This document shows positions 4,816-64,000 of a DNA stretch of 64,000 bases, one piece after another. Within the stretch, counting starts at the first letter, position 1, and every line of letters starts with the position of its first letter. Under the pieces are notes generated by a model, which saw nothing but the letters and a program-made list of their open reading frames with translations, did no database searches and had not been told where the DNA came from. Origin of the DNA: an uncultured Alphaproteobacteria bacterium (lineage in GTDB: Bacteria > Pseudomonadota > Alphaproteobacteria > Acetobacterales > Acetobacteraceae); contig CAWBST010000021.1 in assembly GCA_963791495.1 (NCBI GenBank), positions 136,515 to 200,514 of the forward strand. Reading direction: 5' to 3'. Both the position numbers and the translations under genes were made by a program.

Positions 4816-4826
4816 AATCCGCTCCG

Positions 4827-5102: not shown

Positions 5103-5105
5103 GAC

Positions 5106-5570: not shown

Positions 5571-5682
5571 GATGGGCTCCCTATGGCTGGAGGTCCGCGG
5601 GGGTGCGGGCATAGCCGGGGACGATGCCGTCGCCGCCCGGCAGGGAAGCCGGGGTTAAGCACGAATGGGGGAAGAGAGGCAA

Positions 5683-29774: not shown

Positions 29775-30464
29775 ATGGATCGCGACTCGCAGAAGCGCGA
29801 GGCCGCCGAGGCCGCCGCCGCCCTGGTGCAGGACGGCATGGTCGTCGGACTGGGCACGGGTTCGACCGCCCGTTTCGCCATCGAGGCACTGATCCGCCGT
29901 GTGCATGAGGGACTGCGGATACGCGCAATACCGACATCGGAACGGAGCGCGGCACAGGCGCGAGAGGGCGGCATTCCGCTCACCACCTTCACCGAACACC
30001 GGCAACTCGACCTAACCATCGACGGCGCGGATGAGATCGAAATCGGCTCGCTCAACCTGATCAAGGGAGCAGGCGGCGCTCTGCTGCGCGAGAAGATCGT
30101 TGCTGCAGCGAGCGAACGGCTCGTTATCGTGGCGGACGGCAGAAAGCTGGTGGAACGTCTCGGCGCGACGGTGCCGGTGCCTGTTGAGGTAGTGCCCTTC
30201 GGCTGGGAGACCACCGCGGACCGGCTGCGCCGGCTCGGCACCGATCCGCAGCCAAGACGTGATCAGGCCGGTCAGTTGTTCTGCACCGATGGCGGCAACC
30301 GCATCCTCGACTGCCGGTTCGGAGCGATCTCCGACCCAGCCGGGCTGAATCAGGCAATCGTTCAGATCGTGGGTGTCGTGGAAACCGGGCTATTCATCGG
30401 CATGGCGCGCCAAGCTTTGGTGGCGAGAGATAGAGGCGTCCACGAACTCAGGCGCGGAGACTGA
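29775..30464 (+). CDS. rpiA: Ribose-5-phosphate isomerase A
   Basis: VGLGTGSTA, IDGADEI, and NLIKGAGGALLREKIV motifs. Confidence 0.92.
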   Translation: MDRDSQKREAAEAAAALVQDGMVVGLGTGSTARFAIEALIRRVHEGLRIRAIPTSERSAAQAREGGIPLTTFTEHRQLDLTIDGADEIEIGSLNLIKGAGGALLREKIVAAASERLVIVADGRKLVERLGATVPVPVEVVPFGWETTADRLRRLGTDPQPRRDQAGQLFCTDGGNRILDCRFGAISDPAGLNQAIVQIVGVVETGLFIGMARQALVARDRGVHELRRGD

Positions 30465-41100: not shown

Positions 41101-41859
41101 GTGGCGGCAACCACCTCAATCACTGTCGAAGAGACGCCGCTCGTCCTCCAACTTCTGTCCAGGGCGGATGATGCGCTGATCCTTGGGCATCGTCTGTCGG
41201 AATGGACCGGCCACGCGCCGATGCTCGAGGAGGAGCTGGCGCTGGCCAACATCGCGCTCGATCTCATCGGCCAAGCGCGGACCCTATACGGCTATGCGGG
41301 CACGCTCACCGGCCACACCGAGGACGAGCTTGCCTATCTGCGTGACGTCCCGGCATGGCGGAACTGCCTGATCGTGGAGCTTCCGAATGGCGACTTCGCC
41401 TTCAGCATCGCGCGCCTTCTGCTGGTCTCGGCGTTCGTCGATCCGTTCTGGCGCGCGTCAGCCGCGTCCACCGACAGCACGATTGCCGCCATCGCTGCGA
41501 AGGCGGAGAAGGAGACCTCTTATCACCTGCGGCACGCGGCTGAGTGGCTGATTCGCCTTGGCGACGGCACCGCGGAAAGTCATCGTCGCGCGCAGACCGC
41601 GCTCGATGATCTGTGGCCTTACACGGGCGAACTGTTCACCGACCTGGCGAGTGATGCCGGAATAGTCCCGGACCCGATATCGCTCCGTGATGCCTGGAAC
41701 GCTACCATCGACAGTGTCCTGGCACGCGCCACGCTTGCGCGTCCGCCGGATGGCTGGAGGCAGTCGGGCGGGCGGATCGGACGGCACACCGAACACCTCG
41801 GGTACTTGTTGGCGGAGATGCAATTCCTTCAGCATACCTATCCAGGCGCCACATGGTAG
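41101..41859 (+). CDS. paaC: 1,2-phenylacetyl-CoA epoxidase subunit C
   Basis: GTG start 4 nt after the P450 stop. LILGHRLSEWTGHAPMLEEELALANIALDLIGQAR. Confidence 0.85.
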   Translation: MAATTSITVEETPLVLQLLSRADDALILGHRLSEWTGHAPMLEEELALANIALDLIGQARTLYGYAGTLTGHTEDELAYLRDVPAWRNCLIVELPNGDFAFSIARLLLVSAFVDPFWRASAASTDSTIAAIAAKAEKETSYHLRHAAEWLIRLGDGTAESHRRAQTALDDLWPYTGELFTDLASDAGIVPDPISLRDAWNATIDSVLARATLARPPDGWRQSGGRIGRHTEHLGYLLAEMQFLQHTYPGATW

Positions 41860-49865: not shown

Positions 49866-50954
49866 TCACCCAGCGGAGAAGTCTATCAGCTGCCGCACGA
49901 GAGTACCCTGCTTCATCCGTGCAAAGCCTTCGTTGATCTCATTCAGCTTGATGTGGCCGGAGATCATGTGGTCAAGCTTCAGCTTGCCCTGCACGTAGAG
50001 TTCCAGCAGCCGCGGCATGTCGACACGGAACCGGTTGCCGCCCATCGATGTGCCCTGGATCTTGCGATCGCGCAGAAAGTCCGCGCCATGCAGCTCGATC
50101 TTTGTGCCAAGAGGGATCATGCCGATGATCGTCGCGGTGCCGCCTGGGCGCAGCATGGCAAACGACTGTTCCGCAGTGGTCTTGGTGCCGATCGCCTCGA
50201 ACGAATACGGCACGCCGCCACCGGTCATGTCCTTCACCATCTCCACCGGATCGGCGTTCGACGCATTGATCGTATCGGTGGCACCCATCTGCCGCGCGAC
50301 ATCCAGCTTCGACGCCACCGTGTCGATAGCGATGATGCGTGATGCGCCCGCCATCGCCGCGCCATTCACCGCGGACAACCCTATGCCGCCACAACCGATC
50401 ACCGCGACGGTGGAGCCTGGCTCCACCTTCGCCGCGTGAAACACGGCGCCGACTCCAGTCATGACGCCGCAGCCAACCAGCGCGCAGCGATCGAGCGGCA
50501 CGTCGTCGCGTACCTTCACAACCGCATGCTCGTGCACCAGCATGAATTCCGCAAAGGCAGACAGGTTCATAGCCTGGTTCAACACCTCACCCTTCCAGGT
50601 GAGACGACGCGCCGCGCCAGGAAGCAGCTTCACCTCGGTGTTCTCGCAGAGATTGGGATGACCGGTCATGCATTGCGGACATTCGCCGCAGAACACGGAG
50701 AGGCAGGTGATCACATGATCGCCCGGCTTGACGTAGGTCACGTCATCACCGACCGCCTCGATCACGCCGGCCGCCTCGTGACCCAGCACGCAAGGAGTGG
50801 GGAACGGATATAGCCCTTCGATGAAATGCAGATCAGAATGGCACAGGCCGGCATAGGCGGTGCGCACCAGGACTTCACGGCGCTTCAGTGACGCGTGCTC
50901 GACGTTCTCGATGGTGAGTGGCTGGTTCGGCTCGTGGAATACGGCTGCCCTCAT
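49866..50954 (-). CDS. Zinc-dependent alcohol dehydrogenase
   Basis: GLCHSDLH, GHEAAGVIEAVG, and CGECPQCMTG. ATG 50954 behind GGAGGA. Confidence 0.9.
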   Translation of the reverse strand: MRAAVFHEPNQPLTIENVEHASLKRREVLVRTAYAGLCHSDLHFIEGLYPFPTPCVLGHEAAGVIEAVGDDVTYVKPGDHVITCLSVFCGECPQCMTGHPNLCENTEVKLLPGAARRLTWKGEVLNQAMNLSAFAEFMLVHEHAVVKVRDDVPLDRCALVGCGVMTGVGAVFHAAKVEPGSTVAVIGCGGIGLSAVNGAAMAGASRIIAIDTVASKLDVARQMGATDTINASNADPVEMVKDMTGGGVPYSFEAIGTKTTAEQSFAMLRPGGTATIIGMIPLGTKIELHGADFLRDRKIQGTSMGGNRFRVDMPRLLELYVQGKLKLDHMISGHIKLNEINEGFARMKQGTLVRQLIDFSAG

Positions 50955-51106
50955 GGTTTCCTCCATCGCCTTATGAAGGGGACGCTAGTCCCGGGCACCG
51001 GGAAAGGAAAGGTCAGCGGACCACTGACATTGCTTCCGTAGTCAGTTGCAGCGCGCGTCACATCATTCACGTGTCATTCCTGGACGACGCGCCTCCAAAC
51101 GCGATT

Positions 51107-51502
51107 CTACAGCACCATCTGCGTCTGCGTTACCTTCGCCACCAGCCGCCCCTGCTCATTGATGATCCGCGTCTCCCATACCTGGGTGCGCCGACCGCGA
51201 TGCAGCGGCGTTGCCTCGGCGATCAGCCGCGTTCCCATCGGCGAGCCGGCGAAGAAGTTCGTCTTGCTTTCCACCGTCGTGGTCCCCTGCCCTTCGCGCA
51301 GGTTCACCACCGTACCCAGCGCACCGACCGTGTCGGCGAACGCCATGACAGCGCCACCGTGCATGATGTCGCCGGAGGTACAGAGATCCTCGCGCACCGT
51401 GAGTTCGGCAACCACGCGATCTGGTTCCGCGACCGTGACGGTGATACCCATCCAACGCGGCAGCGGCGGCAATTCCCGTTGCAGGCGAGCGACCAGTTCC
51501 AT
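51107..51502 (-). CDS. PaaI-family hotdog-fold thioesterase
   Basis: 131 aa from the internal ATG. GDIMHGGAVMAFADTVGALG...TVESKTNFF. Confidence 0.8.
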   Translation of the reverse strand: MELVARLQRELPPLPRWMGITVTVAEPDRVVAELTVREDLCTSGDIMHGGAVMAFADTVGALGTVVNLREGQGTTTVESKTNFFAGSPMGTRLIAEATPLHRGRRTQVWETRIINEQGRLVAKVTQTQMVL

Positions 51503-51574
51503 GTGCGTTCCCCTCTCTTGCGGCCGGCGCCGGCCTCGGCCAATACCGGCCGAACGCCGAAGGAACCGAATGCC

Positions 51575-52793
51575 ATGACCCGTCAGGCCGAGTCGATTAT
51601 CCATGAAGTCATGGAAAGCGAGGCATACGGCCGGGCTGTCGCCACCCTGACTGCCGAACACGACCGGACGGTGGAAGACATCGTCACGTTGACCCAGATT
51701 GCCGCACCGTCGTTCCAGGAGGAGACCCGCGCCCGCGCCTTTCTCGCGATGGCCAAGGCGCACGGTCTGAAGGACTTGGAGATCGACGGCGAGGGCAACG
51801 TCACGGGCCGGCGCCCTGGAGTGGGGAATGGCCCACTTATCTGCATCGCTGCCCACCTCGACACGGTGTTCCCCGCCGGCACCGACCTGACCGTGCGGCG
51901 CGAGGGCACGCGGCTCTACGCGCCCGGCGTCGGCGACGATACGCGTTCGCTGGCGGTGCTGCTGGCCTGGCTGCGCGCGATGGATGCAGCCGATGTGCGC
52001 ACCCGCGCCGATCTGCTGTTCGTCGCCGATGTCGGCGAGGAAGGGCCAGGCGACCTGCGCGGCATGCGGCACCTGTTCGGGAAAGGCCCGATACAAGGAC
52101 CGCATCAGCGCCTTCATCACGGTGGACAGCCCGGACATGAGCCACATCGCAACTGGCGGGGTCGGCTCCAAGCGCTATCGCGTGACCTTCAAGGGCCCCG
52201 GCGGCCACAGCTACGGTGCGTTCGGACTGGTGAACCCGATGTTCGCCATGGCGGACACGATCGCCCGGCTCGGCCGCATCACGGTGCCGGCCAGCCCGAA
52301 GACCACCTACAGCGCGTCCGTCACCGGCGGCGGCACGTCGATCAACTCGATCCCCAACAGCGTGTGGACGGACTTCGACCTGCGATCGGAATCGCCTGCC
52401 GAACTGGCCCGGCTGGAGGCAACCTTCCTCGATCTGGTGGCAAGGTCGGTCGCCGCGGAGAATGCGACGCGCTCGACCCGGAACGGCCCGGTATCGACGG
52501 AAATGGTGAAGATCGGCGACCGGCCAGCGGGCCGCACCGACGAGCGCAGCGAACTGGTCCGCATCGCGCACGCGGCGATCAGCGCGCACGGGTTTCAGCC
52601 CAAATTCGAAACCTCCTCGACCGACGCGAACATTCCGATGAGCCTCGGCATCCCCGCGATCAAGATAGGCTCCGGCGGCACGGGTGGACGTGCCCACTCG
52701 CTTGAGGAATGGATCGACGTGGCGCCGGAGCCGTCCATCCGCGGCATGGCCGCCGGCCTCGCAACCGTGCTGGCAGTCGCGGGGATCGTCTGA
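51575..52793 (+). pseudogene. M20-family peptidase with a +1 frameshift at about 52085-52089
   Basis: N-half in the frame of ORF 50918..52705 (IAAHLDTVFP, GVGDDTRS, VGEEGPGDLRGMRHLF). C-half in ORF 51984..52793 (RYKDRISAFITVDS...GGTSINSIPN...HSLEEWI). Removing one base of GGCCC joins them. Confidence 0.8.
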
Positions 52794-53004
52794 CCTGCGG
52801 CGCTGGCACTGGCTGCTCCGACAAATCGGCAGAGGGCTGCGCATTCTACTCGGCATCCTCCTTATAGTCGGCGGCCTGTTCGGTTTCCTGCCGATCGTGG
52901 GGTTCTGGATGTTGCCGCTCGGGGCGATCGTGTTGGCGAGGGAGGTGCCGGCAGTGGCGAGGCTGCTCGAACGTGTGCGGCGCCGCTGGCGGCGTGATCC
53001 GTGA
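52684..53004 (+). CDS. Small two-TM membrane protein (PGPGW-like), start uncertain
   Basis: LRILLGILLIVGGLFGFLPIVGFWMLPLGAIVLA. The only ATG (52684) lies 110 nt inside the M20 gene. GTGA overlap with the permease start. Confidence 0.35.
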   Translation: MDVPTRLRNGSTWRRSRPSAAWPPASQPCWQSRGSSDLRRWHWLLRQIGRGLRILLGILLIVGGLFGFLPIVGFWMLPLGAIVLAREVPAVARLLERVRRRWRRDP

Positions 53005-54182
53005 ACCTCCCCCAGCCGGCCCTCCGACGCGTCCTGACGTTCTGGCCGCTGTTATTCTACGGCCTCGGCGTCATCGTCGGCGCCGGTATATACGTTGCCA
53101 TAGGCACAGTGATCGCACGTGCAGGCGATGCGGCGCCGGTCGCCTTCCTGATCGCCGGCATCACCGCTGCCATGACCGGGTTGTGCTACGCCGAACTCGC
53201 CAGCCGCTTCCCTGAAGCCTCCGGCTCGGTCGCCTATGTGAGGCACGGCTTCGGCTCCCAAGCCTTGGCCGGCCTCACCGGCCTCCTTGTAACCACAACC
53301 GTTGCGATCTCCGCCGCGTCGATCGCACGGGGTTCGATCAGCTATCTCGCCATCCTGCTGCCCTGGCCCCCGGAGGTCCTGCTGCCGTTGCTGATCGTCG
53401 GGTGCGCCGCCATAGCAGCCTATGGCGTCGGCGAGAGCGTCGGGATTGCGGCAGCGATCGGCATCCTGGAAATCGGCGGACTGATCGTGGCAACCATCGC
53501 TGGGGTGATCGCGGCACCCGAACTGCATTTCCGCGCAATGCTGCCTGTCGACCTCGCTGGCTGGAGCGGGACCATGGCTGGCGCCTTCATCGCGTTCTTT
53601 GCGTTCATCGGCTTTGAGACTCTGGCCAACCTGGCAGAGGAGGCGAAGGACCCGCATCGTACGATACCGCGCGGGATTGTCGGCGCCATCGCAGCCAGCA
53701 TCGTGCTTTACGTTATGGTGGCGATCGCTGCCGTGCTCAGTGACAGCGGCGCGGACAGGCCCTTGCTCGACATCTTTGCCGGCGTGGGAGTCTGGCTGTT
53801 CGCGTGCGTCGGTTTCCTGGCCGTGGGCAACGGCACACTGGTCCAGGTCGTGATGCTTGCGCGGCTGTTCTATGGCATGGCCCGCAACGGACAACTGCCG
53901 GTGCTGTTCGCGCGCGTAAGCCCGCGCACCGGCACACCGCTATGGGCGACGGCGCTTGCCGGATGCATCGTGACAGGTGCGGCTGTCGTCGTCTCGTTCG
54001 AGCAGCTGTTGGTACTGACCAACGCACTGACGCTTGCCATCTTCGTATTGGTGGACCTTGCACTGTGGCGCGTGCAGCGCACGTATGCATCCGCCGCACC
54101 GGGATTTGCCGCACCGCGCTGGGTCCCGCCGGTTGCGGCGATCCTTGCCGCCGGCCTGATGCTGGCCGAACTGGCGAGTTAG
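53001..54182 (+). CDS. APC-superfamily amino-acid permease
   Basis: 393 aa, about 11 hydrophobic spans. GLGVIVGAGIYVAIG and AELASRFPEASGSVAY motifs. Confidence 0.8.
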   Translation: MNLPQPALRRVLTFWPLLFYGLGVIVGAGIYVAIGTVIARAGDAAPVAFLIAGITAAMTGLCYAELASRFPEASGSVAYVRHGFGSQALAGLTGLLVTTTVAISAASIARGSISYLAILLPWPPEVLLPLLIVGCAAIAAYGVGESVGIAAAIGILEIGGLIVATIAGVIAAPELHFRAMLPVDLAGWSGTMAGAFIAFFAFIGFETLANLAEEAKDPHRTIPRGIVGAIAASIVLYVMVAIAAVLSDSGADRPLLDIFAGVGVWLFACVGFLAVGNGTLVQVVMLARLFYGMARNGQLPVLFARVSPRTGTPLWATALAGCIVTGAAVVVSFEQLLVLTNALTLAIFVLVDLALWRVQRTYASAAPGFAAPRWVPPVAAILAAGLMLAELAS

Positions 54183-55405
54183 AATCGCGCCACTTCTTCC
54201 AATGCGCCGCGCAATGCATCGGACGCGCGGTACAGTGGCACATGTCCACGCAGCAGGATCTGTGTGCTGCGCCGATACGCTGCCTTTCGCACGTCCAGCC
54301 CGGATGGCGCCAGGCGTGCCTCTATGGTCGCTTCCAACACGCCGGCCGGGTTCTCTATCCCGACATCGACCTCGCCGAACGAGGCACCCACGGATGGCAG
54401 TCCGGCTGCGATCCCGTGTGCCACCGAGCCAGGGATCAGCGCCGCCGCGGCCAGGCAGCAGCCTCCGGACACCGCCATGGAACGATGCGCGGTCTGTGGC
54501 GTGAAGTAGCGGACCGCGATGTGGCCCGCGCCCTGCGCCGGTCCAACGATACATACTTTCGGGATCGTCTCGCTCTGTGCCAGTTCGCCGGCTGTCATCG
54601 CCCGCCCGCCCGCGCCCTTCAGCGCCATGCGCAGACCGGCCTCGACCCACACCGTGCGCAGCGCCGACATGAAGTCGCGATCGGCCTCCAGTTCCTCGAT
54701 CTTCTCGTGCGCGGTCTTGCCGAAATCAGCCGCGCGCGCGATCACCATCGGCACCGCCACGTCAACGCACGAGACCGGGTAGCCGGCCACATCGTCCATC
54801 GGCTGTCCGGTCGGCAGCAGACGTCCGGTCTTGGCGCCCACCGGATTGGCAAGGAACAGATCGACGCCGGGGAACGCGCCGTCCACACCAGGAATCTCGG
54901 CCGCAATGAAGCGTCCGTCAGTGCCGACCCGCATACGCGACCCAGCGGTGACGCCGGTGTTGGTGTTGAAGATGTCGATCTCGAACGCGTTGCCGGCACC
55001 GGCCGGCTCCACCTGCCCGGTATCCAGTGCCCAGAGCGGCAGAGCGGCGGTCATGTTGCCGCAGTTCACGCTCCAATCGATTGCCGCCTTGTTGGCAGCG
55101 AGCTGCGCAAATGTGCTGACGATGCGACGCTGGTTTCCATCCTCCTCAAGCCGGGCAAAGAACACCTTGTTGCCGGTCGGGACGATCCGTCCCAGTCCGG
55201 TGATCTGCTTGTTGCCCGCCCGCGTGCCTTCCAGCGGCAAGCCCATCAGATGGCGCAGCAGTTCTTCGCGCATGGACTGCGCGCGGGGCGCCCAATGTTC
55301 CGAGATCACCAGCCCGGTCGATGTGCCGCCGCGCACATGGTGCACCGGGAACTCGATGCACCCGTCGCGCAACAGAGGTGGCGGATCGAGGGAAGCTGTC
55401 TGCAT
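54179..55405 (-). CDS. PrpF-family isomerase (2-methylaconitate isomerase / 4-oxalomesaconate tautomerase-like)
   Basis: 408 aa. VHHVRGGTSTGLVI, NCGNMTAA, and MAVSGGCCLAAAA motifs. Confidence 0.8.
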   Translation of the reverse strand: MQTASLDPPPLLRDGCIEFPVHHVRGGTSTGLVISEHWAPRAQSMREELLRHLMGLPLEGTRAGNKQITGLGRIVPTGNKVFFARLEEDGNQRRIVSTFAQLAANKAAIDWSVNCGNMTAALPLWALDTGQVEPAGAGNAFEIDIFNTNTGVTAGSRMRVGTDGRFIAAEIPGVDGAFPGVDLFLANPVGAKTGRLLPTGQPMDDVAGYPVSCVDVAVPMVIARAADFGKTAHEKIEELEADRDFMSALRTVWVEAGLRMALKGAGGRAMTAGELAQSETIPKVCIVGPAQGAGHIAVRYFTPQTAHRSMAVSGGCCLAAAALIPGSVAHGIAAGLPSVGASFGEVDVGIENPAGVLEATIEARLAPSGLDVRKAAYRRSTQILLRGHVPLYRASDALRGALEEVARF

Positions 55406-55498: not shown

Positions 55499-57289
55499 AT
55501 GCTGGCCATGTCCCGCCCCGATCCGATCACCGAAGAGCTGTTCCGCAACGCCATCGCCGCACTCGGCGACGAGATGGTGCTGACCATCTACCGCACCGCC
55601 TATTCAGGGGTGCTGAAGAACATCATGGACTACAGTGCTGCGCTGTGCGACGCGCAAGGTCGGTTGGCGGCGCAGGGCCTCGCCCTGCCCGGCCATCTCT
55701 GCTCCATACCGGTCGCACTGCAGGCAGTGCTGCGTCACTTCGGCGAAGACATCGCCGAGGGCGACATCCTGATCAACAACGACCCTTACGACGGCGGCAT
55801 GCATCTGCCGGACATCTTCATCTTCAAGCCGCTATTCGCCCAAGGGCAGCAAGACGGCAGGCCGATCGCCTATGCCGCGACGATCTGCCACCACACCGAT
55901 GTCGGCGGACGCGTGCCAGGCTCCAACGCGTCGGACAGCACCGAGATCTATGCCGAAGGCTTGCGCATCCCGCCGCTGAAACTCTACGAGCGCGGCCAAC
56001 CGAACACGACGCTGTTCCGCATGATCGACCGCAACGTGCGAGTGCCTGGACGCGTGCTAGGAGACATCCGTAGCCAGCTCGCCGCCTGCGAGATCGCCGC
56101 GCGCGGCATGGCCGATCTGGTGGAGCGCTACGGCGCCGATGGTGTCACCTCGCTGATGAATGCCACGATGGATTATTCCGAGCGATTGACACGGCATTGT
56201 CTGTCCGAACTGCCCGACGGCGAGGCGACGTTCACCGACTGGATCGACGACGATCAGATCGATATCGGCAAGCCGATCCCGCTGGTCTGCACGGTGCGCA
56301 AGCGTGGCGATGCGATGGAGGTCGACTGGACCGGCAGCGCCCCGCAGGTGAAGGGCGCGATCAACAACACCTGGAGCTACACCGCAGCGATGAGCTTCAC
56401 CGCGGTGAAGTCGGTGCTGTCCATCAACATGCCGAACAACGACGGCGTGTTCCGCCCCATCAAGGTGATCGCACCGCTTGGCACGATCACGCACGGCAAG
56501 CTGCCGGCCGCCTGTGCGGCTCGGGGACTGACTGGCTTTCGCGGCGTCGACTGCTGTTTCGGCGCTTTGGCGCAACTGTATCCGGATCGCGTTTACGCTG
56601 CGTCCGACGGCGGCAACACGGGCGTCACGATCGGCGGCTACGATACGACGCTGCGGCCATTCATCTACGTCGATTTTCTGTCCGGCTGCTGGGGCGCGCG
56701 GCCGTGGGCCGATGGGTTGGACGGCAACACGTCGATGTTCGCCAACATGGCCAGTTTTTCTGTGGAAGTGATCGAGGCGGAAAATCCGCTCGAAGTGCTG
56801 GACTACGAATTTGTCCCCGACACCGGCGGCGCGGGAAAGTTCCGCGGCGGCATGTCGCAGCGCAAGACATGGCGGATGCTGGCTGACGAGGGAATTCTGC
56901 AGGTGCGCGCCGATCGGCAGACACATCGGCCCTACGGACTGCAAGGCGGCGGGCCCGGCGCGGCGGGCCGCAACGTGCTCGACCCAGGATTACCGTCCGA
57001 AGAGAAGTTGCATGCGAAACTGACCATGACGCTGCGCAAGGGCAAGGTGTTTCGTCACGAACTGCCTGGCGCCGGCGGCTGGGGTGAAGCGCTGGAGCGG
57101 GACCTGGCGCTGGTGGCCAAGGATTTGCGCGATGGGCTGGTGACGATCGAGGGTGCGGCACGCGACTACGGCGTGGTGGCGCGCGGCGACCCGCCTGATA
57201 TCGATGCGACGGCTACCGAGGCATTGCGGGCGGAACTCAGGCGCAGGCGTGGCAGACTGCCGAACGTGGCTTGGGAGGCAGCGGGATAG
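55499..57289 (+). CDS. Hydantoinase B/oxoprolinase (HyuB) family protein
   Basis: DPITEELFRNAIAALGDEMVLTIYRTAYSGVLKNIMDYSAALCD and NDPYDGGMHLPD. The 5' 1.7 kb of ORF 53804..57289 is an artefact. Confidence 0.85.
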   Translation: MLAMSRPDPITEELFRNAIAALGDEMVLTIYRTAYSGVLKNIMDYSAALCDAQGRLAAQGLALPGHLCSIPVALQAVLRHFGEDIAEGDILINNDPYDGGMHLPDIFIFKPLFAQGQQDGRPIAYAATICHHTDVGGRVPGSNASDSTEIYAEGLRIPPLKLYERGQPNTTLFRMIDRNVRVPGRVLGDIRSQLAACEIAARGMADLVERYGADGVTSLMNATMDYSERLTRHCLSELPDGEATFTDWIDDDQIDIGKPIPLVCTVRKRGDAMEVDWTGSAPQVKGAINNTWSYTAAMSFTAVKSVLSINMPNNDGVFRPIKVIAPLGTITHGKLPAACAARGLTGFRGVDCCFGALAQLYPDRVYAASDGGNTGVTIGGYDTTLRPFIYVDFLSGCWGARPWADGLDGNTSMFANMASFSVEVIEAENPLEVLDYEFVPDTGGAGKFRGGMSQRKTWRMLADEGILQVRADRQTHRPYGLQGGGPGAAGRNVLDPGLPSEEKLHAKLTMTLRKGKVFRHELPGAGGWGEALERDLALVAKDLRDGLVTIEGAARDYGVVARGDPPDIDATATEALRAELRRRRGRLPNVAWEAAG

Positions 57290-57293
57290 GCAG

Positions 57294-57704
57294 TCATGCC
57301 GACAGCACCCGCGCGATCTCCCCGATCAGCAGTTGGTTGTCGACCGGCTTCTGCAAGACCGGTCCCAGCGCCTCACGGTCGACGCCGGGAATGTCGTATC
57401 CGGTGATGTAGACCACCTTAAGGTCGCGCCGGCGCAGCCGCGCCATCCGCGATAATGCAATGCCGTTGACGCCGTCCGGCATCACGATGTCCACCAGCAT
57501 GAGATCCAACGGCTGTTCTGCTTCAAGAATTCCCAGCGCTGTCTGGAAATCGGTCGCCAACGTGGCGTCGTAGCCCTCCCGGTCCAGCACTTGACACAGC
57601 GCTTCACCGAAGGTCCGGTCATCCTCGACCACGAGGATTCGGCGTTTGCCAGCGTCGGCCCCTGGGAATGTAGACGCGCTCATGGAATACGCAGAACCCA
57701 TCAC
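57294..57704 (-). CDS. Single-domain response regulator (REC only)
   Basis: RILVVEDDRTFGEAL...DLMLVDIVMPDGVNG...KVVYITGY. Confidence 0.85.
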   Translation of the reverse strand: MMGSAYSMSASTFPGADAGKRRILVVEDDRTFGEALCQVLDREGYDATLATDFQTALGILEAEQPLDLMLVDIVMPDGVNGIALSRMARLRRRDLKVVYITGYDIPGVDREALGPVLQKPVDNQLLIGEIARVLSA

Positions 57705-57831
57705 GTTTCCGAGCGCCTATCCTTATGGTCGCAAGCGAGACGGCGCAAGAGCGGCGCTCCATTTACTTTCAGCGCGCTCCGCCGCACGGTCCGCCGCACT
57801 ATTGCCACAGCTTTCCACACCAGGATGATGA

Positions 57832-58704
57832 ATGAGCGGCCATCGGAGTATCATTCCGTCACTGATCACCCGGCACCACCAACGGTTGTTGACCGCGTGG
57901 CTTGCCAACCTGAGACGTGATGTGCGGATCAGCGATCCCCGTCGGGCGGCCGAAACCGACGAGCTGGCGCGGCGGTTCCTGGACGAATTCAGCCGCGGTG
58001 AGGCGGTCGCACAATTCGATGATATCCAGGCCGCGGAGTGGCGGCCGATGCGCGAACTGCTGGAGGATCTCTCGCGCGACCGCGCGGTGCAGGGCCACAG
58101 CGCGGGCGAGACGGCGATCTTCGTCCTCTCGCTGAAGGAACCGCTGTTCGCGCTCCTGCGTGAGGATCTCGGTGCCGACGCTGACCGGCTCGCCAACGAG
58201 ACCTTGATTGCCGATCGTCTGATCGACCGGCTGAGCCTCTATACCGTCGAGTGCTACGCGCGGGCCCGTGAAGAGGTGATTTCCCGCCAGCAGCAGGAAC
58301 TGCTGGAGCTTTCGACCCCGGTGGTGCAATTGTGGGAGGGAATTCTTGCCCTGCCATTGATCGGCACGCTCGACAGTGCGCGCACGCAGATCGTCATGGA
58401 AAGCCTGCTGCAGCGCATCGTCACCTCGGGGGCGGAAATCGCCATCATCGACATCACCGGTGTGCCGACGGTCGATACGCTGGTCGCGCAGCACCTGATC
58501 AAGACCATCTCGGCCGCGCGACTGATGGGCGCCGACTGCATCCTGAGTGGGATCCGTCCGCAGATCGCCCAGACCATCGTGCATCTGGGCCTGGAGCTGA
58601 ACGTGGTGTCCAAGGCGACCATGGCGGACGCGCTCGCGCTGGCGCTGCGCCGCTCCGGCAAGGTGATCACGGACCGGAAGCGGCCTGTCGCACCGGAAGC
58701 ATAG
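57832..58704 (+). CDS. rsbR: RsbR-like stressosome sensor (N-terminal RsbRD_N-type domain + STAS)
   Basis: 290 aa. C-terminal LSTPVVQLWEGILALPLIGTLDSARTQ...IIDITGVPTVDT STAS pattern. Helical N-terminal 160 aa. Confidence 0.8.
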   Translation: MSGHRSIIPSLITRHHQRLLTAWLANLRRDVRISDPRRAAETDELARRFLDEFSRGEAVAQFDDIQAAEWRPMRELLEDLSRDRAVQGHSAGETAIFVLSLKEPLFALLREDLGADADRLANETLIADRLIDRLSLYTVECYARAREEVISRQQQELLELSTPVVQLWEGILALPLIGTLDSARTQIVMESLLQRIVTSGAEIAIIDITGVPTVDTLVAQHLIKTISAARLMGADCILSGIRPQIAQTIVHLGLELNVVSKATMADALALALRRSGKVITDRKRPVAPEA

Positions 58705-58708
58705 CTGC

Positions 58709-59098
58709 ATGGCCGACATCCCCATCCTCCGGATCGGCGATTGCCTGCTGGTGTCGATCCAGGTCGATATGCACGATCGGCTGGCGTTGGCGCTGCAGGA
58801 CGATTTGACCGAGCGCATTGTGGCCGACCACGCTCGCGGCGTGATGATCGACATCTCGGCCCTCGAGATCGTCGATTCATTCATCGGCCGCATGCTGAAC
58901 AACATCGCGGCTATGTCGCGCGTGCTCGACGCGGTCACTGTCGTTGTCGGCATGCGGCCGGCAGTGGCGATCACGCTGGTGGAGCTTGGCCTCGGCCTCA
59001 CCGGCGTGCGCACCGCGCTGAACGTGGACAAGGGGCTCGCCCTGATACGACGCATCATCGACAGCCCCGAGCGCGACGATGCAGACCGAGTTCGATGA
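58709..59098 (+). CDS. rsbS: RsbS-like STAS-domain protein
   Basis: IPILRIGDCLLVSIQVD...VMIDISALEIVDSFIGRML, with the conserved Ser in VDS. Confidence 0.8.
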   Translation: MADIPILRIGDCLLVSIQVDMHDRLALALQDDLTERIVADHARGVMIDISALEIVDSFIGRMLNNIAAMSRVLDAVTVVVGMRPAVAITLVELGLGLTGVRTALNVDKGLALIRRIIDSPERDDADRVR

Positions 59099-59483
59099 AA
59101 CCATGCCGCTGCGCACGTCCGACGACGTGGTGAGAGTGCGACAGGCGGTGCGGGCGCGCGCGGTCGCCGCGGGTTTCAGCTTGGTGGATCAGACGAAGAT
59201 CGTCACGGCGGCGAGCGAGATCGGCCGCAATACGCTCGATTACGGTGGGGGCGGCACGCTGCGCATCGAAGTGCTGCGCAACGGACGGCGCTGCGGCGTG
59301 CGCCTGACCTTTGAGGACCAGGGGCCGGGAATTGCCGACCTTACACAGGCAATGAAGGACGGCTATACGACCGGCTCCGGCCTTGGCCTCGGCCTTGGTG
59401 GCGCAAAGCGGCTGTGCAACGAGTTCGACGTTCGGTCAGCACCCGGACAGGGCACCGTCGTGACGATCGCGAGATGGACATAG
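59079..59483 (+). CDS. rsbT: RsbT-like GHKL serine kinase
   Basis: EIGRNTLDYGGGG (N box), DQGPGI, and GSGLGLGLGG. Alternative ATG at 59103. Confidence 0.8.
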   Translation: MQTEFDETMPLRTSDDVVRVRQAVRARAVAAGFSLVDQTKIVTAASEIGRNTLDYGGGGTLRIEVLRNGRRCGVRLTFEDQGPGIADLTQAMKDGYTTGSGLGLGLGGAKRLCNEFDVRSAPGQGTVVTIARWT

Positions 59484-59484
59484 C

Positions 59485-60465
59485 ATGTTCGCCACGGTAG
59501 CCGACGCGAGTCAGGTCGCGGACACCCGCAGGACAGTGAGCGAACTTGCCCGGCGCATCGGCCTGGGACAGTCGAAGATCGACCGGGCGGCAATCGTCGT
59601 CACCGAACTGGCGACCAACCTCTTGAAGCACGGCGGCGGCGGCCATATCCACGCACGACAGTGTGACGATGCAGATGGCCGCGGGCTGGAACTGCTCGCA
59701 CTGGATCGCGGCGGCGGCATGACCGACCCGAGCCGCTGTATGCAGGATGGCTACTCGACTGCCGGCAGTCCCGGCAACGGCCTTGGTGCGATCGCGCGCC
59801 TCGCGGACGCTGTACAGATCTACACACGTGCCGGACAGGGCTGCGTCGTGATGGCCCGATTTGTCGAAGGCCCGGTGCGGGATGTGCGACCGGTGCTGGG
59901 TGTTGCGATCGCTCCCTATCCGGGCGAACGCGTCTCTGGCGACAATTGGTCGTGGAGAGCCAGCTCGCACGGTCCAACGATCATGCTGGTCGACGGCTCA
60001 GGCCATGGTGTCGAGGCGGCACGTGCCGCCGAGATCGCTGTCCGGACATTTTCGGAGAACGCTGATGCAGCCTGCGAAGTTGTCGTCGAGCGGATCCATC
60101 GTGCCCTTGCGCCGACCCGCGGCGGCGCAGTGGCGGTCGCGCGGATCGACGCGGCGGCCGGCGTCGTCCGCTTCGTCGGACTGGGCAATGTCAGTGCCGT
60201 GCTCGTGAGTGCCGGCAAGACGCGCCACATGGTCTCGCACAACGGAACGGCCGGACACGTCGCGCCACGCATCCGCGAGTTCACCTACGATTTTACCGGC
60301 GAGCCGATGGTGATCCTGCATTCGGACGGGCTGACCAGCCGCTGGAACTTGGCGGCCTACCCGGGGTTGGCCGGTCAACACCCGTCCTTGATTGCCGGCG
60401 TTCTGCTGCGTGACCACCGGCGCGAACGAGATGACGCCGCAGTGGTCATCATGCGGGGAACGTAA
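59485..60465 (+). CDS. Fusion of a GHKL (RsbW/RsbT-like) domain and a PP2C/SpoIIE phosphatase (RsbX-like)
   Basis: N-half: ELATNLLKHGGGG, DRGGGM, GNGLGA. C-half: ERVSGDNW, LVDGSGHGVEAA, HSDGL, DDAAVV. Confidence 0.8.
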   Translation: MFATVADASQVADTRRTVSELARRIGLGQSKIDRAAIVVTELATNLLKHGGGGHIHARQCDDADGRGLELLALDRGGGMTDPSRCMQDGYSTAGSPGNGLGAIARLADAVQIYTRAGQGCVVMARFVEGPVRDVRPVLGVAIAPYPGERVSGDNWSWRASSHGPTIMLVDGSGHGVEAARAAEIAVRTFSENADAACEVVVERIHRALAPTRGGAVAVARIDAAAGVVRFVGLGNVSAVLVSAGKTRHMVSHNGTAGHVAPRIREFTYDFTGEPMVILHSDGLTSRWNLAAYPGLAGQHPSLIAGVLLRDHRRERDDAAVVIMRGT

Positions 60466-60476
60466 TAGAGTAGGCC

Positions 60477-62612
60477 ATGGATATCTGCCTGCTGCGGATC
60501 GTGATTGCTGCCGAGACCGACATCGTGCTGGTCCGCAGCCGGACGCGGCGTCTCGCCGAACTGATCGGGTTCGATGCGCAGGATCAGACGCGCATCACGA
60601 CAGCGGTTTCGGAGATCGCCCGCAATGCCTACGAGTATGCGGGCGGCGGCAACATCGGGTTTCACCTGATCGGCGAGACGGCGACGCCAAGTTTCGTCAT
60701 CGTGGTACGCGACCGCGGGTCCGGCATTGCCAATCTGGCCGCCGTGCTGTCTGGCTCGCACAAGTCAGCGACGGGCATGGGCATCGGGCTGCTGGGCGCG
60801 CGACGCCTGATGGATACGTTCGACATCACGTCGAAACCCGGCGAGGGCACGACGGTGCGGCTCGGCAAGACGTTGCCCCGGACAGCGCCCGCGGTTACCC
60901 AGGCGTCGCTCAAGCGCATCATGGACAGTCTGTCGGCGGATGGTCCTGCGGATGCGATTGCGGAAATCAAGCGGCAAAATCAGCAGATTCTGCTGCAGAT
61001 GGATGAGCTGCGATCGCGCCAGGAGGATCTTCAGCGGCTCAATCAGGAGCTGCAGGACACCAACCGCGGTGTTGTCGCGCTTTACGCCGAGCTGGACGAG
61101 CGCGCAGATCACCTACGGCGCGCCGATGAGCTGAAATCGAAGTTCCTCTCGCATATGAGCCACGAATTCCGCACGCCGCTCAACTCGATCCTGGCGTTGT
61201 CGCGGCTGCTGATGTCGCGCAGCGACGGCCCGCTGACGGCGGAGCAGGAGACGCAGGTCCGCTTCATCCAAAGGGCGGCCATGAACCTGACCGAGCTGGT
61301 CGACGATCTTCTGGACCTCGCAAAGGTGGAGGCCGGCAAGACGGTGGTGGTCGCATCCCCCTTCACGGCCGCGTCGCTGTTCGGTGCGTTGCGAGGGATG
61401 TTGCGACCCTTGCTGGTTGGCGACGCGGTGAGCCTGGTGTTCGAGGACCCGCACGATCTGCCGCCGCTCGACACCGACGAGGCCAAGGTGTCGCAGATAT
61501 TGCGCAATTTCATCTCGAACGCGATCAAGTTCACCGAACGCGGGGAAGTGCGGGTCTGGGCCACGGCCGATCCCGTTGCCGATACGGTCAGTCTGCACGT
61601 GCGCGATACCGGCATCGGGATCGCCGCCAACGACATCGACATCATCTTCCAGGAGTTCGGGCAAGTCTCACATCGGCTGCAAGGTCGTGTGAAGGGCACC
61701 GGCCTTGGCTTGCCATTGGCGAAGAAGCTGGCCGAGCTGCTCGGCGGCTCGATCGCCGTTGAAAGCACGCCTGGCGACGGCTCGACATTCTCCGTGACCC
61801 TGCCTCGGGTCTATCAGTCCGGCGAGTCGGCGGATGCCGAGCAGGAGCAGGTGCTGGAGCCGGGACGCATACCAGTGCTGCTGGTGGAAGACGATCCGGC
61901 GGATGCGCTCGCGATCGAACGTCTGCTTGCCGGCTCGATCTATCAGCCGTTGCTCGCCCGCTCGGTCCGAGATGCCAGGAGTCTCATGCAGGCGGTACGG
62001 CCCGATGCGATTTTGCTCGACATCGTGCTGATGGGCGATGAGAGCTGGCGGCTGCTGCTGGAGATGCGCGGCCAGGAGGCAAACGCCGACATCCCGCTGA
62101 TCGTCACATCATCTACCGGCGAAGTTCGCAAGGCCGCACATCTGGGCGCCGATGAGTACCTCGCCAAGCCAGTCGATGGCGAAAGATTGATCGACATTCT
62201 GGACAGGGTGACGGGGCGCCATTCGCTCACGCAAGTGTTGCTGGTGGATGACGAAGAGGTGACTCATTACTTGGTCCGCCAGCTCTTGCCGCGTGCGCAA
62301 TATCGGCTTTGGATCGCGAACAACGGCAAGGACGCACTGGATCGCCTGGTTGAACAAAGCCCTGACGTGGTCCTGCTTGATCTCAGGATGCCGGGGATGA
62401 GTGGTTTTGAATTTCTCGATCGCGTGAAGCAGAATGCTGCGCTCGCCGAGCTGCCGGTCATTGTATTGACTTCGACAACACCGCAGCCGGAGGAGCGCGC
62501 TTTGCTGGGCGGCGCTTCGCTGATCATTTCGAAAACCGACCTTGCATCTGGGTCACTGACCGATGCCATCGGCAGGGTCCTTCGGCTCGGCGAGAGGGTC
62601 GGCGCCGCATGA
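60477..62612 (+). CDS. Hybrid sensor histidine kinase: GHKL-like N-domain, coiled coil, HisKA, HATPase, REC, REC
   Basis: EIARNAYEYAGGG/DRGSGI/GMGIGLLG, then SHMSHEFRTPLNS (H box), DTGIGI, GTGLGLPLAK. REC domains VLLVEDDP...LLDIVL and VLLVDDEE...LLDLRMPGMSG. Confidence 0.88.
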   Translation: MDICLLRIVIAAETDIVLVRSRTRRLAELIGFDAQDQTRITTAVSEIARNAYEYAGGGNIGFHLIGETATPSFVIVVRDRGSGIANLAAVLSGSHKSATGMGIGLLGARRLMDTFDITSKPGEGTTVRLGKTLPRTAPAVTQASLKRIMDSLSADGPADAIAEIKRQNQQILLQMDELRSRQEDLQRLNQELQDTNRGVVALYAELDERADHLRRADELKSKFLSHMSHEFRTPLNSILALSRLLMSRSDGPLTAEQETQVRFIQRAAMNLTELVDDLLDLAKVEAGKTVVVASPFTAASLFGALRGMLRPLLVGDAVSLVFEDPHDLPPLDTDEAKVSQILRNFISNAIKFTERGEVRVWATADPVADTVSLHVRDTGIGIAANDIDIIFQEFGQVSHRLQGRVKGTGLGLPLAKKLAELLGGSIAVESTPGDGSTFSVTLPRVYQSGESADAEQEQVLEPGRIPVLLVEDDPADALAIERLLAGSIYQPLLARSVRDARSLMQAVRPDAILLDIVLMGDESWRLLLEMRGQEANADIPLIVTSSTGEVRKAAHLGADEYLAKPVDGERLIDILDRVTGRHSLTQVLLVDDEEVTHYLVRQLLPRAQYRLWIANNGKDALDRLVEQSPDVVLLDLRMPGMSGFEFLDRVKQNAALAELPVIVLTSTTPQPEERALLGGASLIISKTDLASGSLTDAIGRVLRLGERVGAA

Positions 62613-64000
62613 GCCATTGCGCGGCCAACATCCTTGTCGTCGATGATGATGATGGCGGCCGCTATCTGAAGGCACATGTCCTGCGGAAGCACGGCTACCA
62701 CGTCAGCGAGGCTGCGACAGGCATCGACGCGATTGAGCAATGTTGCGCCTCTGCGCCCGACCTGGTTCTGCTCGACGTCATGTTGCCCGATATTCACGGG
62801 ATCGAGGTCAGTCGGCGGATCAAGGCCGCGAACCCTGGCATCGCTGTGCTGCAGACGTCGGCCGCGGTCACCAGCCCGCAGGATCGTGCGGTGGCGCTGG
62901 ACGGCGGGGCGGACGGCTTTCTGGTCGAGCCGATCGAACCTAGCGAACTGCTCGCGACCGCGCAGGCCCTGCTGCGGATGCGGGGAGCGGAGCAGGATCT
63001 GCGCCAGCTCAACGAGAGCCTGGAACTGCAGGTTGCCGAACGCACCCGCGCTCTGACCGAGGCCAATCGACGGCTGCAAGTCGAGATCGAGGAGCGTCGC
63101 AAGACCGAAGAGGTACTCTGGCATACGCAAAAGCTGGAGGTGATCGGCCAGCTCACCGGCGGCATCGCCCACGACTTCAACAATCTGCTCGCAGTCATCG
63201 TGGGCAGCATGGAGATGATCCGCTCTGCCTTCGAAGCGGGCGGCGATTTGCCGCGCGCGAAGATCATGCGCCTGCTGAAGGCGTCCGAGAGCGCGACGGG
63301 CCGCGCGACGAAATTGACGCAACAGCTCCTCGCTTTCGCCCGCCGCAGCACGTTCACGCTCGATATCGTCACGCTCGACGAAGTACTCGTGGCATGCGAA
63401 CCATTTCTGCGGCGTGCTCTGGGCGACGAAAGCACGCTGGACCTGCAGTTCGAACCCGACCTGTGGTCTTGCCGGATCGATGCCGCTCAGTTCGAGGCGG
63501 CGATCCTGAACCTTGTCGTCAACGCGCGCGACGCCATGCCGGGTGGCGGCCGATTGGAGATCACCACTGGCAACGTCGTGGTCGATGCAGCAGAGGCGCG
63601 ACGTTCGCCGGACCTGACCGCCGGCGATTATGTGCTCGTGGGCATCACGGATACCGGCACCGGCATGGACGCCAATGTCGCGGCGCACATATTCGAGCCG
63701 TTCTTCACGACCAAGGAGGTTGGCAAGGGCACGGGGCTCGGACTCAGCCAAGTCTATGGCTTCATAAAGCAGTCGGGCGGGCACGTGGTGATCGACAGCG
63801 AACTCGGTGTCGGCACGACGTTTCGCCTGTATCTGCCCCGGTGCGAAGATCCACGGCAGGCCAGCGATGTCCTGGACACGACAACGGACGTGACGCCGAC
63901 CGGACATGAGACGGTGCTCGTTGTCGAGGACAACGCCGAGGTGCTGGAGCTTGCGGTCGCCACGATCAGCGATCTGGGCTATCGGGTGTTGACCGCAGCG
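62609..64000 (+). CDS. Hybrid histidine kinase REC-HisKA-HATPase-REC, 3' end outside the window
   Basis: Own translation from ATG 62609 (ATGA overlap with the previous gene) stays open for 464 codons to the window end. ILVVDDDD...LLDVMLPD, GGIAHDFNNLL, NARDAMPGGG, GTGLGLSQVYG, then VLVVEDNAEV. Not in the ORF track because there is no stop. Confidence 0.85.
   Translation, partial: MSHCAANILVVDDDDGGRYLKAHVLRKHGYHVSEAATGIDAIEQCCASAPDLVLLDVMLPDIHGIEVSRRIKAANPGIAVLQTSAAVTSPQDRAVALDGGADGFLVEPIEPSELLATAQALLRMRGAEQDLRQLNESLELQVAERTRALTEANRRLQVEIEERRKTEEVLWHTQKLEVIGQLTGGIAHDFNNLLAVIVGSMEMIRSAFEAGGDLPRAKIMRLLKASESATGRATKLTQQLLAFARRSTFTLDIVTLDEVLVACEPFLRRALGDESTLDLQFEPDLWSCRIDAAQFEAAILNLVVNARDAMPGGGRLEITTGNVVVDAAEARRSPDLTAGDYVLVGITDTGTGMDANVAAHIFEPFFTTKEVGKGTGLGLSQVYGFIKQSGGHVVIDSELGVGTTFRLYLPRCEDPRQASDVLDTTTDVTPTGHETVLVVEDNAEVLELAVATISDLGYRVLTAA

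Follow-up and report, generated by a model that had tools for sequence, protein, structure and literature searches.

Stressosome signalling in bacteria without SigB is an acknowledged open question, and it is raised here by a locus at one end of a 64,000-nucleotide (nt) stretch of DNA from an uncultured member of the Acetobacteraceae (GenBank assembly GCA_963791495.1, contig CAWBST010000021.1, positions 136,515 to 200,514 of the forward strand). Within this stretch, hereafter the window, the genes from position 57294 to the end encode RsbR-, RsbS-, and RsbT-like proteins together with two histidine kinases (HK1 and HK2) and several receiver (REC) domains. To what would such a stressosome report? 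The locus is a predicted self-contained seven-gene stress-signalling cassette of the RsbRSTX plus two-component class, with no linked sigma factor. Its gene arrangement is not due to chance, because the same order recurs in dozens of species, and the parts are very likely to be what they are called below.

Stressosome genes and the kinases behind them

A total of seven open reading frames (ORFs) make up the cassette (Table 1), all intact within the window by ORF list and translation save that of HK2, which runs past position 64000. The six plus-strand genes meet at junctions of +4, -20, +1, +11, and -4 nt; rsbT overlaps rsbS by 20 nt, and an ATGA overlap read directly from the sequence joins HK1 and HK2 at 62609 to 62612. 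Every Pfam domain match lies above the gathering cut-off, and NCBIfam was also run on the cassette proteins. Relatives (loci with the prefix L) came from a scan of species-representative genomes (79 loci) and a tblastn survey with the seven window proteins, and selected loci were scanned with Pfam. A preliminary description of this DNA, written by a model from the letters and an ORF list, had reported six packed plus-strand genes with gaps of -20 to +11 nt and an ATGA at 62609, which were reproduced exactly. Its RsbR-like protein with STAS, RsbS-like STAS protein, RsbT-like kinase, and GHKL-PP2C fusion were all supported by the profile searches, with Protein Data Bank (PDB) matches in addition for RsbR and RsbS and with HATPase_c_2 and SpoIIE matches in the fusion. 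The divergent single-REC gene, the REC-kinase-REC protein running off the window, and the total of five RECs were borne out by Response_reg matches and by full-length HK2 orthologues. For the 711-amino-acid (aa) kinase, the two RECs stood, and an N-terminal HATPase_c_2 domain had been missed.

RsbR and RsbS carry the sequence features of stressosome core proteins. Residues 129 to 281 of RsbR match RsbR of Vibrio vulnificus (7O0I; E = 9e-34, the best PDB match) and of Listeria (7e-33) in a PDB sequence search, and the match takes in the linker helix. In the alignment, S182 falls on Listeria T175 and T216 on T209, so that both phospho-sites are kept; the known sites are T171/T205 in Bacillus subtilis and T175/T209 in Listeria. 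RsbS matches Listeria RsbS (6QCM; 7e-30), a further RsbS entry (6JHK; 5e-29), and Moorella MtS (2VY9; 3e-25). Its phospho-serine is S57 (nt 58877 to 58879), inside a conserved DSF motif and presumably the counterpart of S59 in B. subtilis and S56 in Listeria, and all three phospho-acceptors of the two proteins appear intact. Most of the PDB-matched RsbR and RsbS proteins come from cryo-EM stressosome complexes. No other cassette protein is as well conserved as RsbS, whose median identity is 90% among alphaproteobacterial loci and 77% to Massilia. The ATP boxes of RsbT (N-box E47/N51, G1 D80xGxG, and G2 GLGLGLGG) are invariant in every clade examined, which points to an intact GHKL serine kinase. 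Neither RsbT nor the N-terminal domain of HK1 (HK1-N) had a PDB sequence match at E <= 0.01, and the choice between RsbT type and RsbW type is not settled against solved structures. The locus holds an RsbR-type and an RsbS-type protein, an RsbT-type kinase directly after rsbS, and an RsbX-type PP2C, and this RsbRSTX set is complete and apparently functional.

The RsbX is part of a fusion protein, GX, whose N-terminal half (GX-N) is a GHKL domain. For the PP2C half, the only PDB sequence matches were Moorella MtX (3ZT9; 3e-12) and B. subtilis RsbX (3W40; 1e-5). An AlphaFold2 model of GX (predicted local distance difference test [pLDDT], 84.7; predicted template modeling score [pTM], 0.87) gave the same two entries as top Foldseek matches (template modeling [TM] scores of 0.80 for 3ZT9 and 0.74 for 3W40), with 3KE6 also among the matches. 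Key residues of the PP2C half are D153, D170, G234-N235, D281, and D316/D317; the catalytic Asp residues and the ATP-motif residues are invariant in an alignment of 24 homologues and in all clades, and the ATP motifs of GX-N are invariant across phyla. A "GN" motif defines the RsbX-like PP2C group (PMC4524716), and GX carries it at G234-N235. Because the PP2C half is of RsbX type by sequence and by predicted fold, with metal-binding residues that appear intact, the core is best read as an rsbRSTX module of the known kind in which RsbX bears a fused GHKL domain. GX has many full-length relatives, at least 120 of them at 61 to 99% identity, some of which, in Acetobacteraceae, bear the NCBI name "ATP-binding SpoIIE family protein phosphatase." The three small GHKL domains of the cassette are paralogues with N, G1, and G2 boxes: RsbT is 38% identical to HK1-N (E = 3e-29) and 35% identical to GX-N (4e-18), and HK1-N is 25% identical to GX-N (1e-12).

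In HK1 the RsbT-like GHKL domain lies at aa 14 to 130, where kinases normally hold a sensor domain. An AlphaFold2 model of residues 1 to 460 (pLDDT, 83) places GHKL at 1 to 132 and DHp helix 2 and CA after the H-box, and in it a single uninterrupted helix of 87 residues (aa 160 to 246; pLDDT, 80 to 94) runs into the H-box at H229. Between the RsbT-like domain and the H-box, this helix bears the near-invariant motif TNRGVVALYAELD. Every HK1 has the pre-DHp segment ELxDTNRG(V/I)VALYAE(L/I)D...LRRADE(L/M)KSRFLSxMSHEFRTPL, 14 positions of which are invariant in 49 homologues. A strict regular expression for the linker motif matched 53 of 86 sequences, with a single match at each locus; in Massilia and Planctomycetaceae it differs at 1 to 2 residues. 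A protein search with the linker only returned just short gene fragments with HisKA. With H229 and the receiver aspartates D515 (REC-A) and D635 (REC-B), HK1 has the residues of a hybrid histidine kinase; no protein identical to its 711 aa was on record in an exact-protein look-up.

The N-terminal domain of HK1 is more variable than its linker. Alphaproteobacterial HK1-N domains, and those of several other clades, have intact ATP motifs. The Massilia loci (L054, 11360 to 12742; also L044-L059, L069, and L071) have another residue in place of the N-box Asn and no G1 or G2 box, and the domain falls below Pfam detection there, yet its first two helices are almost invariant; the Massilia domain is by its sequence a pseudo-kinase. 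HK1 orthologues of Xanthomonas and Planctomycetaceae have no N-terminal GHKL domain. Since the linker motif survives where the N-domain has decayed (Massilia) or is absent (Xanthomonas and Planctomycetaceae), the linker helix, and not the N-domain, is the predicted universal and conserved coupling element of the HK1 family.

HK2 is a REC-gated, CckA-like hybrid histidine kinase with its H-box at H188 and its N-terminal receiver (N-REC) aspartate at D56. Only ~30 residues of its C-terminal receiver (C-REC) lie inside the window; the full-length orthologues of L003 (553 aa) and L005 (549 aa) read REC-HisKA-HATPase_c-REC. All five RECs of the cassette keep the phospho-Asp. The HK2 N-REC is atypical: acidic pocket, D56, and T83 are kept, and E107 replaces the conserved Lys (position of CheY K109). 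This residue is E in 38/38 alphaproteobacterial homologues and A, Q, H, or E elsewhere, with one K. The single-domain REC0, found just in the alphaproteobacterial form of the cassette, has an acidic pocket (E27/D28), phospho-Asp D72, T101, and K119, all of them kept in 45 alphaproteobacterial homologues. Among its paralogues the HK2 C-REC is nearest (36% identity; E = 2e-16), and HK1 REC-B resembles the HK2 N-REC (4e-15). The nearest NCBIfam models of HK2 were PRK13557 (350 bits) and Brucella CckA (346 bits against a cut-off of 1000), both below cut-off, and those of REC0, the C-terminal REC of PRK13557 and CpdR (63 bits against a cut-off of 180), were far below it. By these comparisons HK2 and REC0 are paralogues, not orthologues, of CckA and CpdR.

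The 127-nt region between REC0 and rsbR may hold the control signals of the cassette. An alignment of 13 homologous regions showed four blocks conserved in about a dozen species: TCCTTATGG, CGCAAG, CATTTACTTT, and GCACGGTCCGCCGC. The sole sigma-70-like consensus match is weak, the blocks hold no clear sigma-70 or EcfG consensus, and no riboswitch or other known RNA was matched in this region or the rsbR leader in Rfam at E <= 1. The blocks could be an operator or an unusual promoter. EcfG-type promoters are a mark of the alphaproteobacterial general stress response; one candidate, GGAAT-N15-CGTT at 57684 to 57707, would have linked the cassette to that response but is absent even from the 99%-identical contig L001 and was set aside as chance. 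Among 37 homologous intergenic regions, the motif had one unrelated match.

Table 1. Features of the cassette and ORFs examined in its surroundings (window positions; bit scores from Pfam)
Feature	Positions	Strand	Length	Domains and remarks
REC0, single-domain response regulator	57294-57704	-	136 aa	Response_reg 53.6 bits
Intergenic region REC0/rsbR	57705-57831	.		Conserved non-coding blocks; presumed promoter/operator
RsbR-like co-antagonist/sensor	57832-58704	+	290 aa	RsbRD_N 74 bits (57856-58161), STAS 52 bits (58327-58611)
RsbS-like STAS scaffold/antagonist	58709-59098	+	129 aa	STAS 31 bits
RsbT-like GHKL serine switch kinase	59079-59483	+	134 aa	HATPase_c 46 bits, HATPase_c_2 34 bits
GX, GHKL + RsbX-type PP2C fusion	59485-60465	+	326 aa	HATPase_c_2 55 bits (GHKL 59500-59853), SpoIIE 38 bits (PP2C 59896-60456)
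HK1 hybrid kinase	60477-62612	+	711 aa	HATPase_c_2 56 bits, HisKA 61 bits, HATPase_c 132 bits, 2 x Response_reg
HK1 RsbT-like GHKL	60477-60872	+
HK1 helix	60954-61214	+
HK1 linker motif	61032-61121	+
HK1 HisKA	61134-61337	+
HK1 HATPase_c	61476-61808	+
HK1 REC-A	61872-62216	+
HK1 REC-B	62235-62576	+
HK2, REC-HK-REC	62609-64000	+	463 codons	Cut by window end; Response_reg 85 bits, HisKA 28 bits, HATPase_c 68 bits
HK2 N-REC	62630-62959	+
HK2 coiled coil		+		Between N-REC and HisKA
HK2 HisKA	63146-63346	+
HK2 HATPase_c	63479-63841	+
HK2 C-REC	from 63905	+
Window ORFs examined in the chromosomal background	4243-5612, 10111-10689, 29775-30464, 41101-41859, 49866-55405

Relatives and genomic setting

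The best relatives of the cassette are metagenome-assembled genomes (MAGs) of Acetobacteraceae, in agreement with the alphaproteobacterial origin given in the preliminary description. The same seven genes were recovered in two 99%-identical metagenome contigs, the 87-kb contig L003, and an 8.3-Mb genome (L004/L005). The gene order survey that the description had called for found the full cassette, with divergent REC0 and in the same order, in ~40 Acetobacteraceae, Stellaceae, and uncultured alphaproteobacterial species. The cassette core recurs in four other phyla or classes: a form without REC0 (RsbR-RsbS-RsbT-GX-HK1-HK2-like) is present in Massilia, Duganella, Rubrivivax, Gemmatimonadota, Steroidobacteraceae, and Planctomycetaceae. 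Where these cores were checked, HK1 is shorter (in Massilia it has no RECs), and HK2 has an additional PAS domain. A 29-kb plasmid of Xanthomonas vasicola, pXVH29 (L085; NZ_CP034650, 6557 to 11976), also carries the core without REC0, as RsbRD_N-STAS, STAS, RsbT, GHKL-PP2C, a kinase without a GHKL domain, and REC-PAS-HK-REC; its rsbR/rsbS has 73.5% nucleotide identity to the window, and its presence suggests horizontal spread of the module between classes. Actinobacterial loci have plain rsbRSTX with no GHKL fusion. Soil Acetobacteraceae and Massilia commonly carry the family, which is found in plant-associated Xanthomonas as well. One Solirubrobacterales MAG (L060, 13086 to 14501) has a REC-PP2C after HK1, with the architecture of Bacillus cereus RsbY, a hint that some members may route back into a Ser/Thr partner switch.

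Relatives also show how the cassette ends beyond position 64000, where the preliminary description had advised looking for an output. It closes with the ~550-aa REC-HK-REC protein, and the next gene is unrelated in L003 (hydantoinase A) and in L004 and L005 (an ABC-transporter gene set); no output regulator, output domain, or DNA-binding output follows in these three. Further downstream in non-alphaproteobacterial relatives there was no conserved effector, most tested ORFs giving no Pfam family or unrelated enzymes. Within the cassette proteins, Pfam and NCBIfam found no DNA-binding, enzymatic output, or histidine phosphotransfer (HPt) domain. The same searches found no sigma factor, anti-sigma/anti-anti-sigma pair, or RsbU_N in the cassette or in the upstream genes tested. 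No sigma factor, anti-sigma/anti-anti-sigma pair, RsbU_N, or RsbV-like single STAS protein lies next to the cassette in ~10 annotated or Pfam-scanned loci, the rest of the ~80 scanned loci having been read for gene order only. The parts of a SigB-type output, namely an RsbU with RsbU_N, an RsbV/RsbW pair, and a group 3 sigma factor, do not occur in the locus, and in this the description was right to report no RsbW/SigB-type pair. No other STAS, GHKL, histidine kinase, or REC paralogue was found in the whole window.

The locus had been called accessory, a label that its setting qualifies. In ~15 Acetobacteraceae species the cassette sits between hyuB (upstream; ~55560 to 57289) and hyuA (downstream, past 64000). 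Hydantoinase subunit genes are usually adjacent; here they are split by the 7-kb cassette in B...A order, as in L003 (6028 to 7806 and 14931 to 16913), L006, L008, L010-L015, L018, and L020. Its position is conserved in this lineage, unlike that of a sporadic accessory island. Between species the hyu flanking genes are ~90% identical and the cassette genes only 60 to 80%. The GC content of the locus is flat (0.62 to 0.66), and housekeeping genes outside the locus, among them those for ribosomal proteins, point to a chromosomal setting. A plasmid origin was considered and rejected: no near-identical plasmid was found, the sole notable match being the Xanthomonas plasmid at rsbR/rsbS. The rest of the window looks like ordinary chromosome, with genes for ribosomal proteins S6 and L9, a LysR regulator, ribose-5-phosphate isomerase, PaaA, a zinc alcohol dehydrogenase, an M20 peptidase, an amino acid permease, and PrpF. 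The HK1 or HK2 gene calls of two relatives are split or short (L003, 12769 to 13120, 591 + 65 aa; L004, 13153 to 14078, a 241-aa fragment against 549 aa in L005) and are probably assembly frameshifts or a recent pseudogenization in one of two near-identical genomes.

Possible routes from the stressosome to the receivers

We consider it somewhat better than even, at a probability of about 0.6, that the signal would run from the stressosome to RsbT, from RsbT to HK1, from HK1 to HK2, and from there to the single-domain REC0, the final target of which would be unlinked. A signal at the RsbR N-domain would allow RsbT to phosphorylate RsbS and RsbR and then to leave the complex. Free RsbT would engage the conserved helix ahead of DHp and so switch HK1 on, perhaps with a part played by the fused RsbT-like domain. 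HK1 would autophosphorylate at H229 and then donate phosphate to both of its RECs and to the paralogous HK2 N-REC; activated HK2 would in turn phosphorylate, from H188, its own C-REC and the paralogous REC0, and phosphorylated REC0 would act by protein-protein contact. GX would dephosphorylate RsbS-P and RsbR-P as a reset, with its GHKL domain probably docked on the STAS lattice. The preliminary description had spoken of a multi-REC phosphorelay. Two kinases and five RECs are indeed present; no Hpt family match was found in the seven cassette proteins (Pfam, E <= 0.01), and relatives have no extra gene inside the cassette; an unlinked HPt is possible. Because no HPt domain is encoded, the cassette looks like a two-tier kinase cascade and not a canonical His-Asp-His-Asp phosphorelay, a term looser than the evidence allows.

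The specific contact of RsbT with the HK1 linker is a more tentative proposal, to which we give slightly less than an even chance. Since an RsbT paralogue is fused to the linker of this kinase in part of the family, there is Rosetta-stone-type evidence that RsbT-type proteins may act there, which would parallel the way in which RsbT rigidifies or orders the RsbU linker.

Several points weigh against the flow from RsbT through the kinases to REC0. The wiring was put together from gene order, domain fusion, and paralogy. RsbU_N, the sole experimentally supported receptor of RsbT, was not found in the cassette by Pfam, and in V. vulnificus an interaction between RsbT and D1 was not detected (Heinz 2022, PMC9237108). 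The HK2 N-REC, without the conserved Lys, may not be an ordinary phospho-switch, and the onward route of phosphate from the hybrid-kinase RECs is uncertain because there is no HPt. ATP binding in GX-N and HK1-N has a role that this flow leaves unexplained. Finally, as the preliminary description had noted, neither the input signal nor the final output, here the REC0 target, can be read from the sequence.

It is possible that the RsbT-like domains of HK1 and GX anchor both proteins directly on the RsbR/RsbS lattice, in competition with free RsbT, in which case STAS phosphorylation under stress would release or reorient HK1 and RsbT would be a lattice kinase only, not a messenger. The close paralogy of HK1-N and RsbT (38% identity; E = 3e-29) is consistent with this, and by tblastn HK1-N is about as near to canonical actinobacterial RsbTs as the cassette RsbT is. 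In Massilia, HK1-N lost its ATP motifs and kept its N-terminal helices, as for a binding rather than a catalytic module, and the unusual conservation of RsbS fits many docking partners. However, the HK1 proteins of Xanthomonas and Planctomycetaceae have no GHKL domain despite the presence of RsbR, RsbS, RsbT, and GX, so docking is not universal, and a dimeric 711-aa kinase would probably be sterically limited on the stressosome surface; on balance we think direct docking rather unlikely. RsbR and RsbS might also be soluble STAS antagonists of the three GHKL domains, with no pseudo-icosahedral particle, given that complex formation is not readable from sequence and that RsbRD_N differs from the globin-type domains of the RsbRs in stressosomes solved by cryo-EM. 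This too is improbable, and markedly so: matches over the full length of the STAS domains tie RsbR and RsbS to proteins from stressosome studies (E = 9e-34 and 7e-30), the RsbR linker helix included, and RsbR, RsbS, RsbT, and RsbX are the minimal stressosome set (PMC9237108).

The least probable of the alternatives, and a very improbable one, keeps a sigma factor as the output. A sigma factor encoded at another locus would be under the control of an anti-sigma factor, either RsbT or the RsbW-like GHKL domain of GX, and the kinases and RECs would form a parallel or input branch, on the model of RsbK-RsbY in B. cereus, where a kinase/REC branch feeds a PP2C. Public annotation does call relatives "anti-sigma regulatory factor," GX-N and RsbT give sub-threshold NCBIfam matches to RsbA, SpoIIAB, and RsbW, and the REC-PP2C after HK1 in the Solirubrobacterales relative is RsbY-like in architecture. 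However, those anti-sigma matches are all far under the family cut-offs, the PP2C is of RsbX type and not of RsbU/RsbY type, and the window contains no further STAS/GHKL paralogue. A linked sigma or RsbV-like gene was likewise absent from the ~10 annotated or Pfam-scanned loci and from the window ORFs tested.

The flow through RsbT, HK1, and HK2 has a wider form, which we regard as doubtful though less so than direct docking: a general and as yet undescribed stressosome-to-two-component route, in which RsbT-type kinases would bind the pre-DHp helix ELxDTNRGVVALYAELD of a dedicated histidine kinase family and activate it with no RsbU_N, and the GHKL-RsbX fusion may reset the lattice by a like docking logic. 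If true, the cassette family (Acetobacteraceae, Massilia, Xanthomonas, Gemmatimonadota, and Planctomycetota) would represent a second stressosome output mechanism.

Comparison with known systems

The class to which the cassette belongs is known: comparative genomics by Pané-Farré in 2005 reportedly defined RsbRST(X) modules with two-component outputs. For Xanthomonas campestris, there is said to be a proteomic report of RsbR expression and phosphorylation only. RSTX modules with HisKA/REC phosphorelay outputs have been listed, for example in Ruegeria; most of the downstream proteins are without RsbU_N, and the link from RsbT to the kinase is unknown (Heinz 2022, PMC9237108). Among Gram-negative bacteria only Vibrio stressosomes have been studied, according to the same paper, which matches the statement in the preliminary description that such modules are catalogued and studied in few organisms. 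A coiled-coil linker is the means by which RsbT activates RsbU, and rsbT operons can include histidine kinase genes (Baral 2025, PMC12143880). Functional work on stressosomes with a non-sigma output covers Vibrio brasiliensis, V. vulnificus, and Moorella thermoacetica (Jia 2016, PMC4976288; PMC9237108; PMC12143880). In the literature searched we found nothing on the cassette in Alphaproteobacteria and no paper that pairs "stressosome" with "Acetobacteraceae." Nor was any description of GHKL-RsbX or RsbT-like-HK fusions found, in a search that did not cover the 2005 catalogue.

Taken alone, the locus adds a further member to a class already catalogued. It is also a widespread, uncharacterized variant, and its domain fusions are relevant to the open question of mechanism. 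Three features give a hold on that question: the fusion of an RsbT paralogue to the kinase downstream, a 13-residue invariant linker motif, and an RsbX with its own GHKL domain. Given the spread of the family, a mechanism solved in one member should apply widely.

The SigB stressosome of B. subtilis and Listeria shares with the cassette an RsbR/RsbS core with phospho-sites, the RsbT switch kinase, and the RsbX feedback phosphatase. In comparison, the window has no RsbU, RsbV/RsbW, or sigma factor, a single RsbR, and rsbX directly after rsbT. The rsbRSTX operons of V. vulnificus and V. brasiliensis have the same rsbR-rsbS-rsbT-rsbX order, no SigB, RsbV, or RsbW, and two-component genes directly downstream, and the coupling of RsbT to the kinase is open there as here. 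Vibrio RsbR, however, is a haem globin-coupled sensor, whereas that of the window has RsbRD_N; Vibrio RsbX is a single-domain PP2C, whereas that of the window is fused to GHKL; and in Vibrio a PAS domain is the input of D1 and the output of D2 is of c-di-GMP type, whereas the window kinase has an RsbT-like input and its chain ends in REC-only proteins.

Two further comparisons concern single parts. Rv1364c of Mycobacterium tuberculosis (3KE6) and OsaC of Streptomyces coelicolor resemble GX in joining an RsbW-type serine kinase and a PP2C in one polypeptide, but with the domain order reversed, with extra PAS, GAF, and STAS domains, with an RsbU-type PP2C, and in the regulation of SigF/SigB-type sigma factors. 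In the CckA-ChpT-CpdR/CtrA pathway, CckA resembles HK2 in HisKA, CA, and C-REC, and CpdR resembles REC0. HK2 and REC0 differ from them in having no PAS or transmembrane inputs and no ChpT-like HPt, and in scores far below the equivalog cut-offs.

The MtR-MtS-MtT-MtX-MtG module of M. thermoacetica is likewise an RSTX module with a non-sigma output, so far as Quin 2012 is recounted in PMC12143880 and PMC4976288. MtX (3ZT9) is the closest solved relative of the GX PP2C half in both sequence and fold, although it is without the GHKL fusion. MtG is a GGDEF cyclase with an RsbU_N receptor for MtT, whereas the outputs in the window are histidine kinases without RsbU_N. Histidine kinases of the RsbU_N type that follow other stressosome modules are like HK1 in that the catalytic core is reached through a coiled-coil linker. 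Their receptor is RsbU_N; in its place, HK1 has an RsbT paralogue, or no N-terminal domain at all, joined to a distinct and invariant linker motif.

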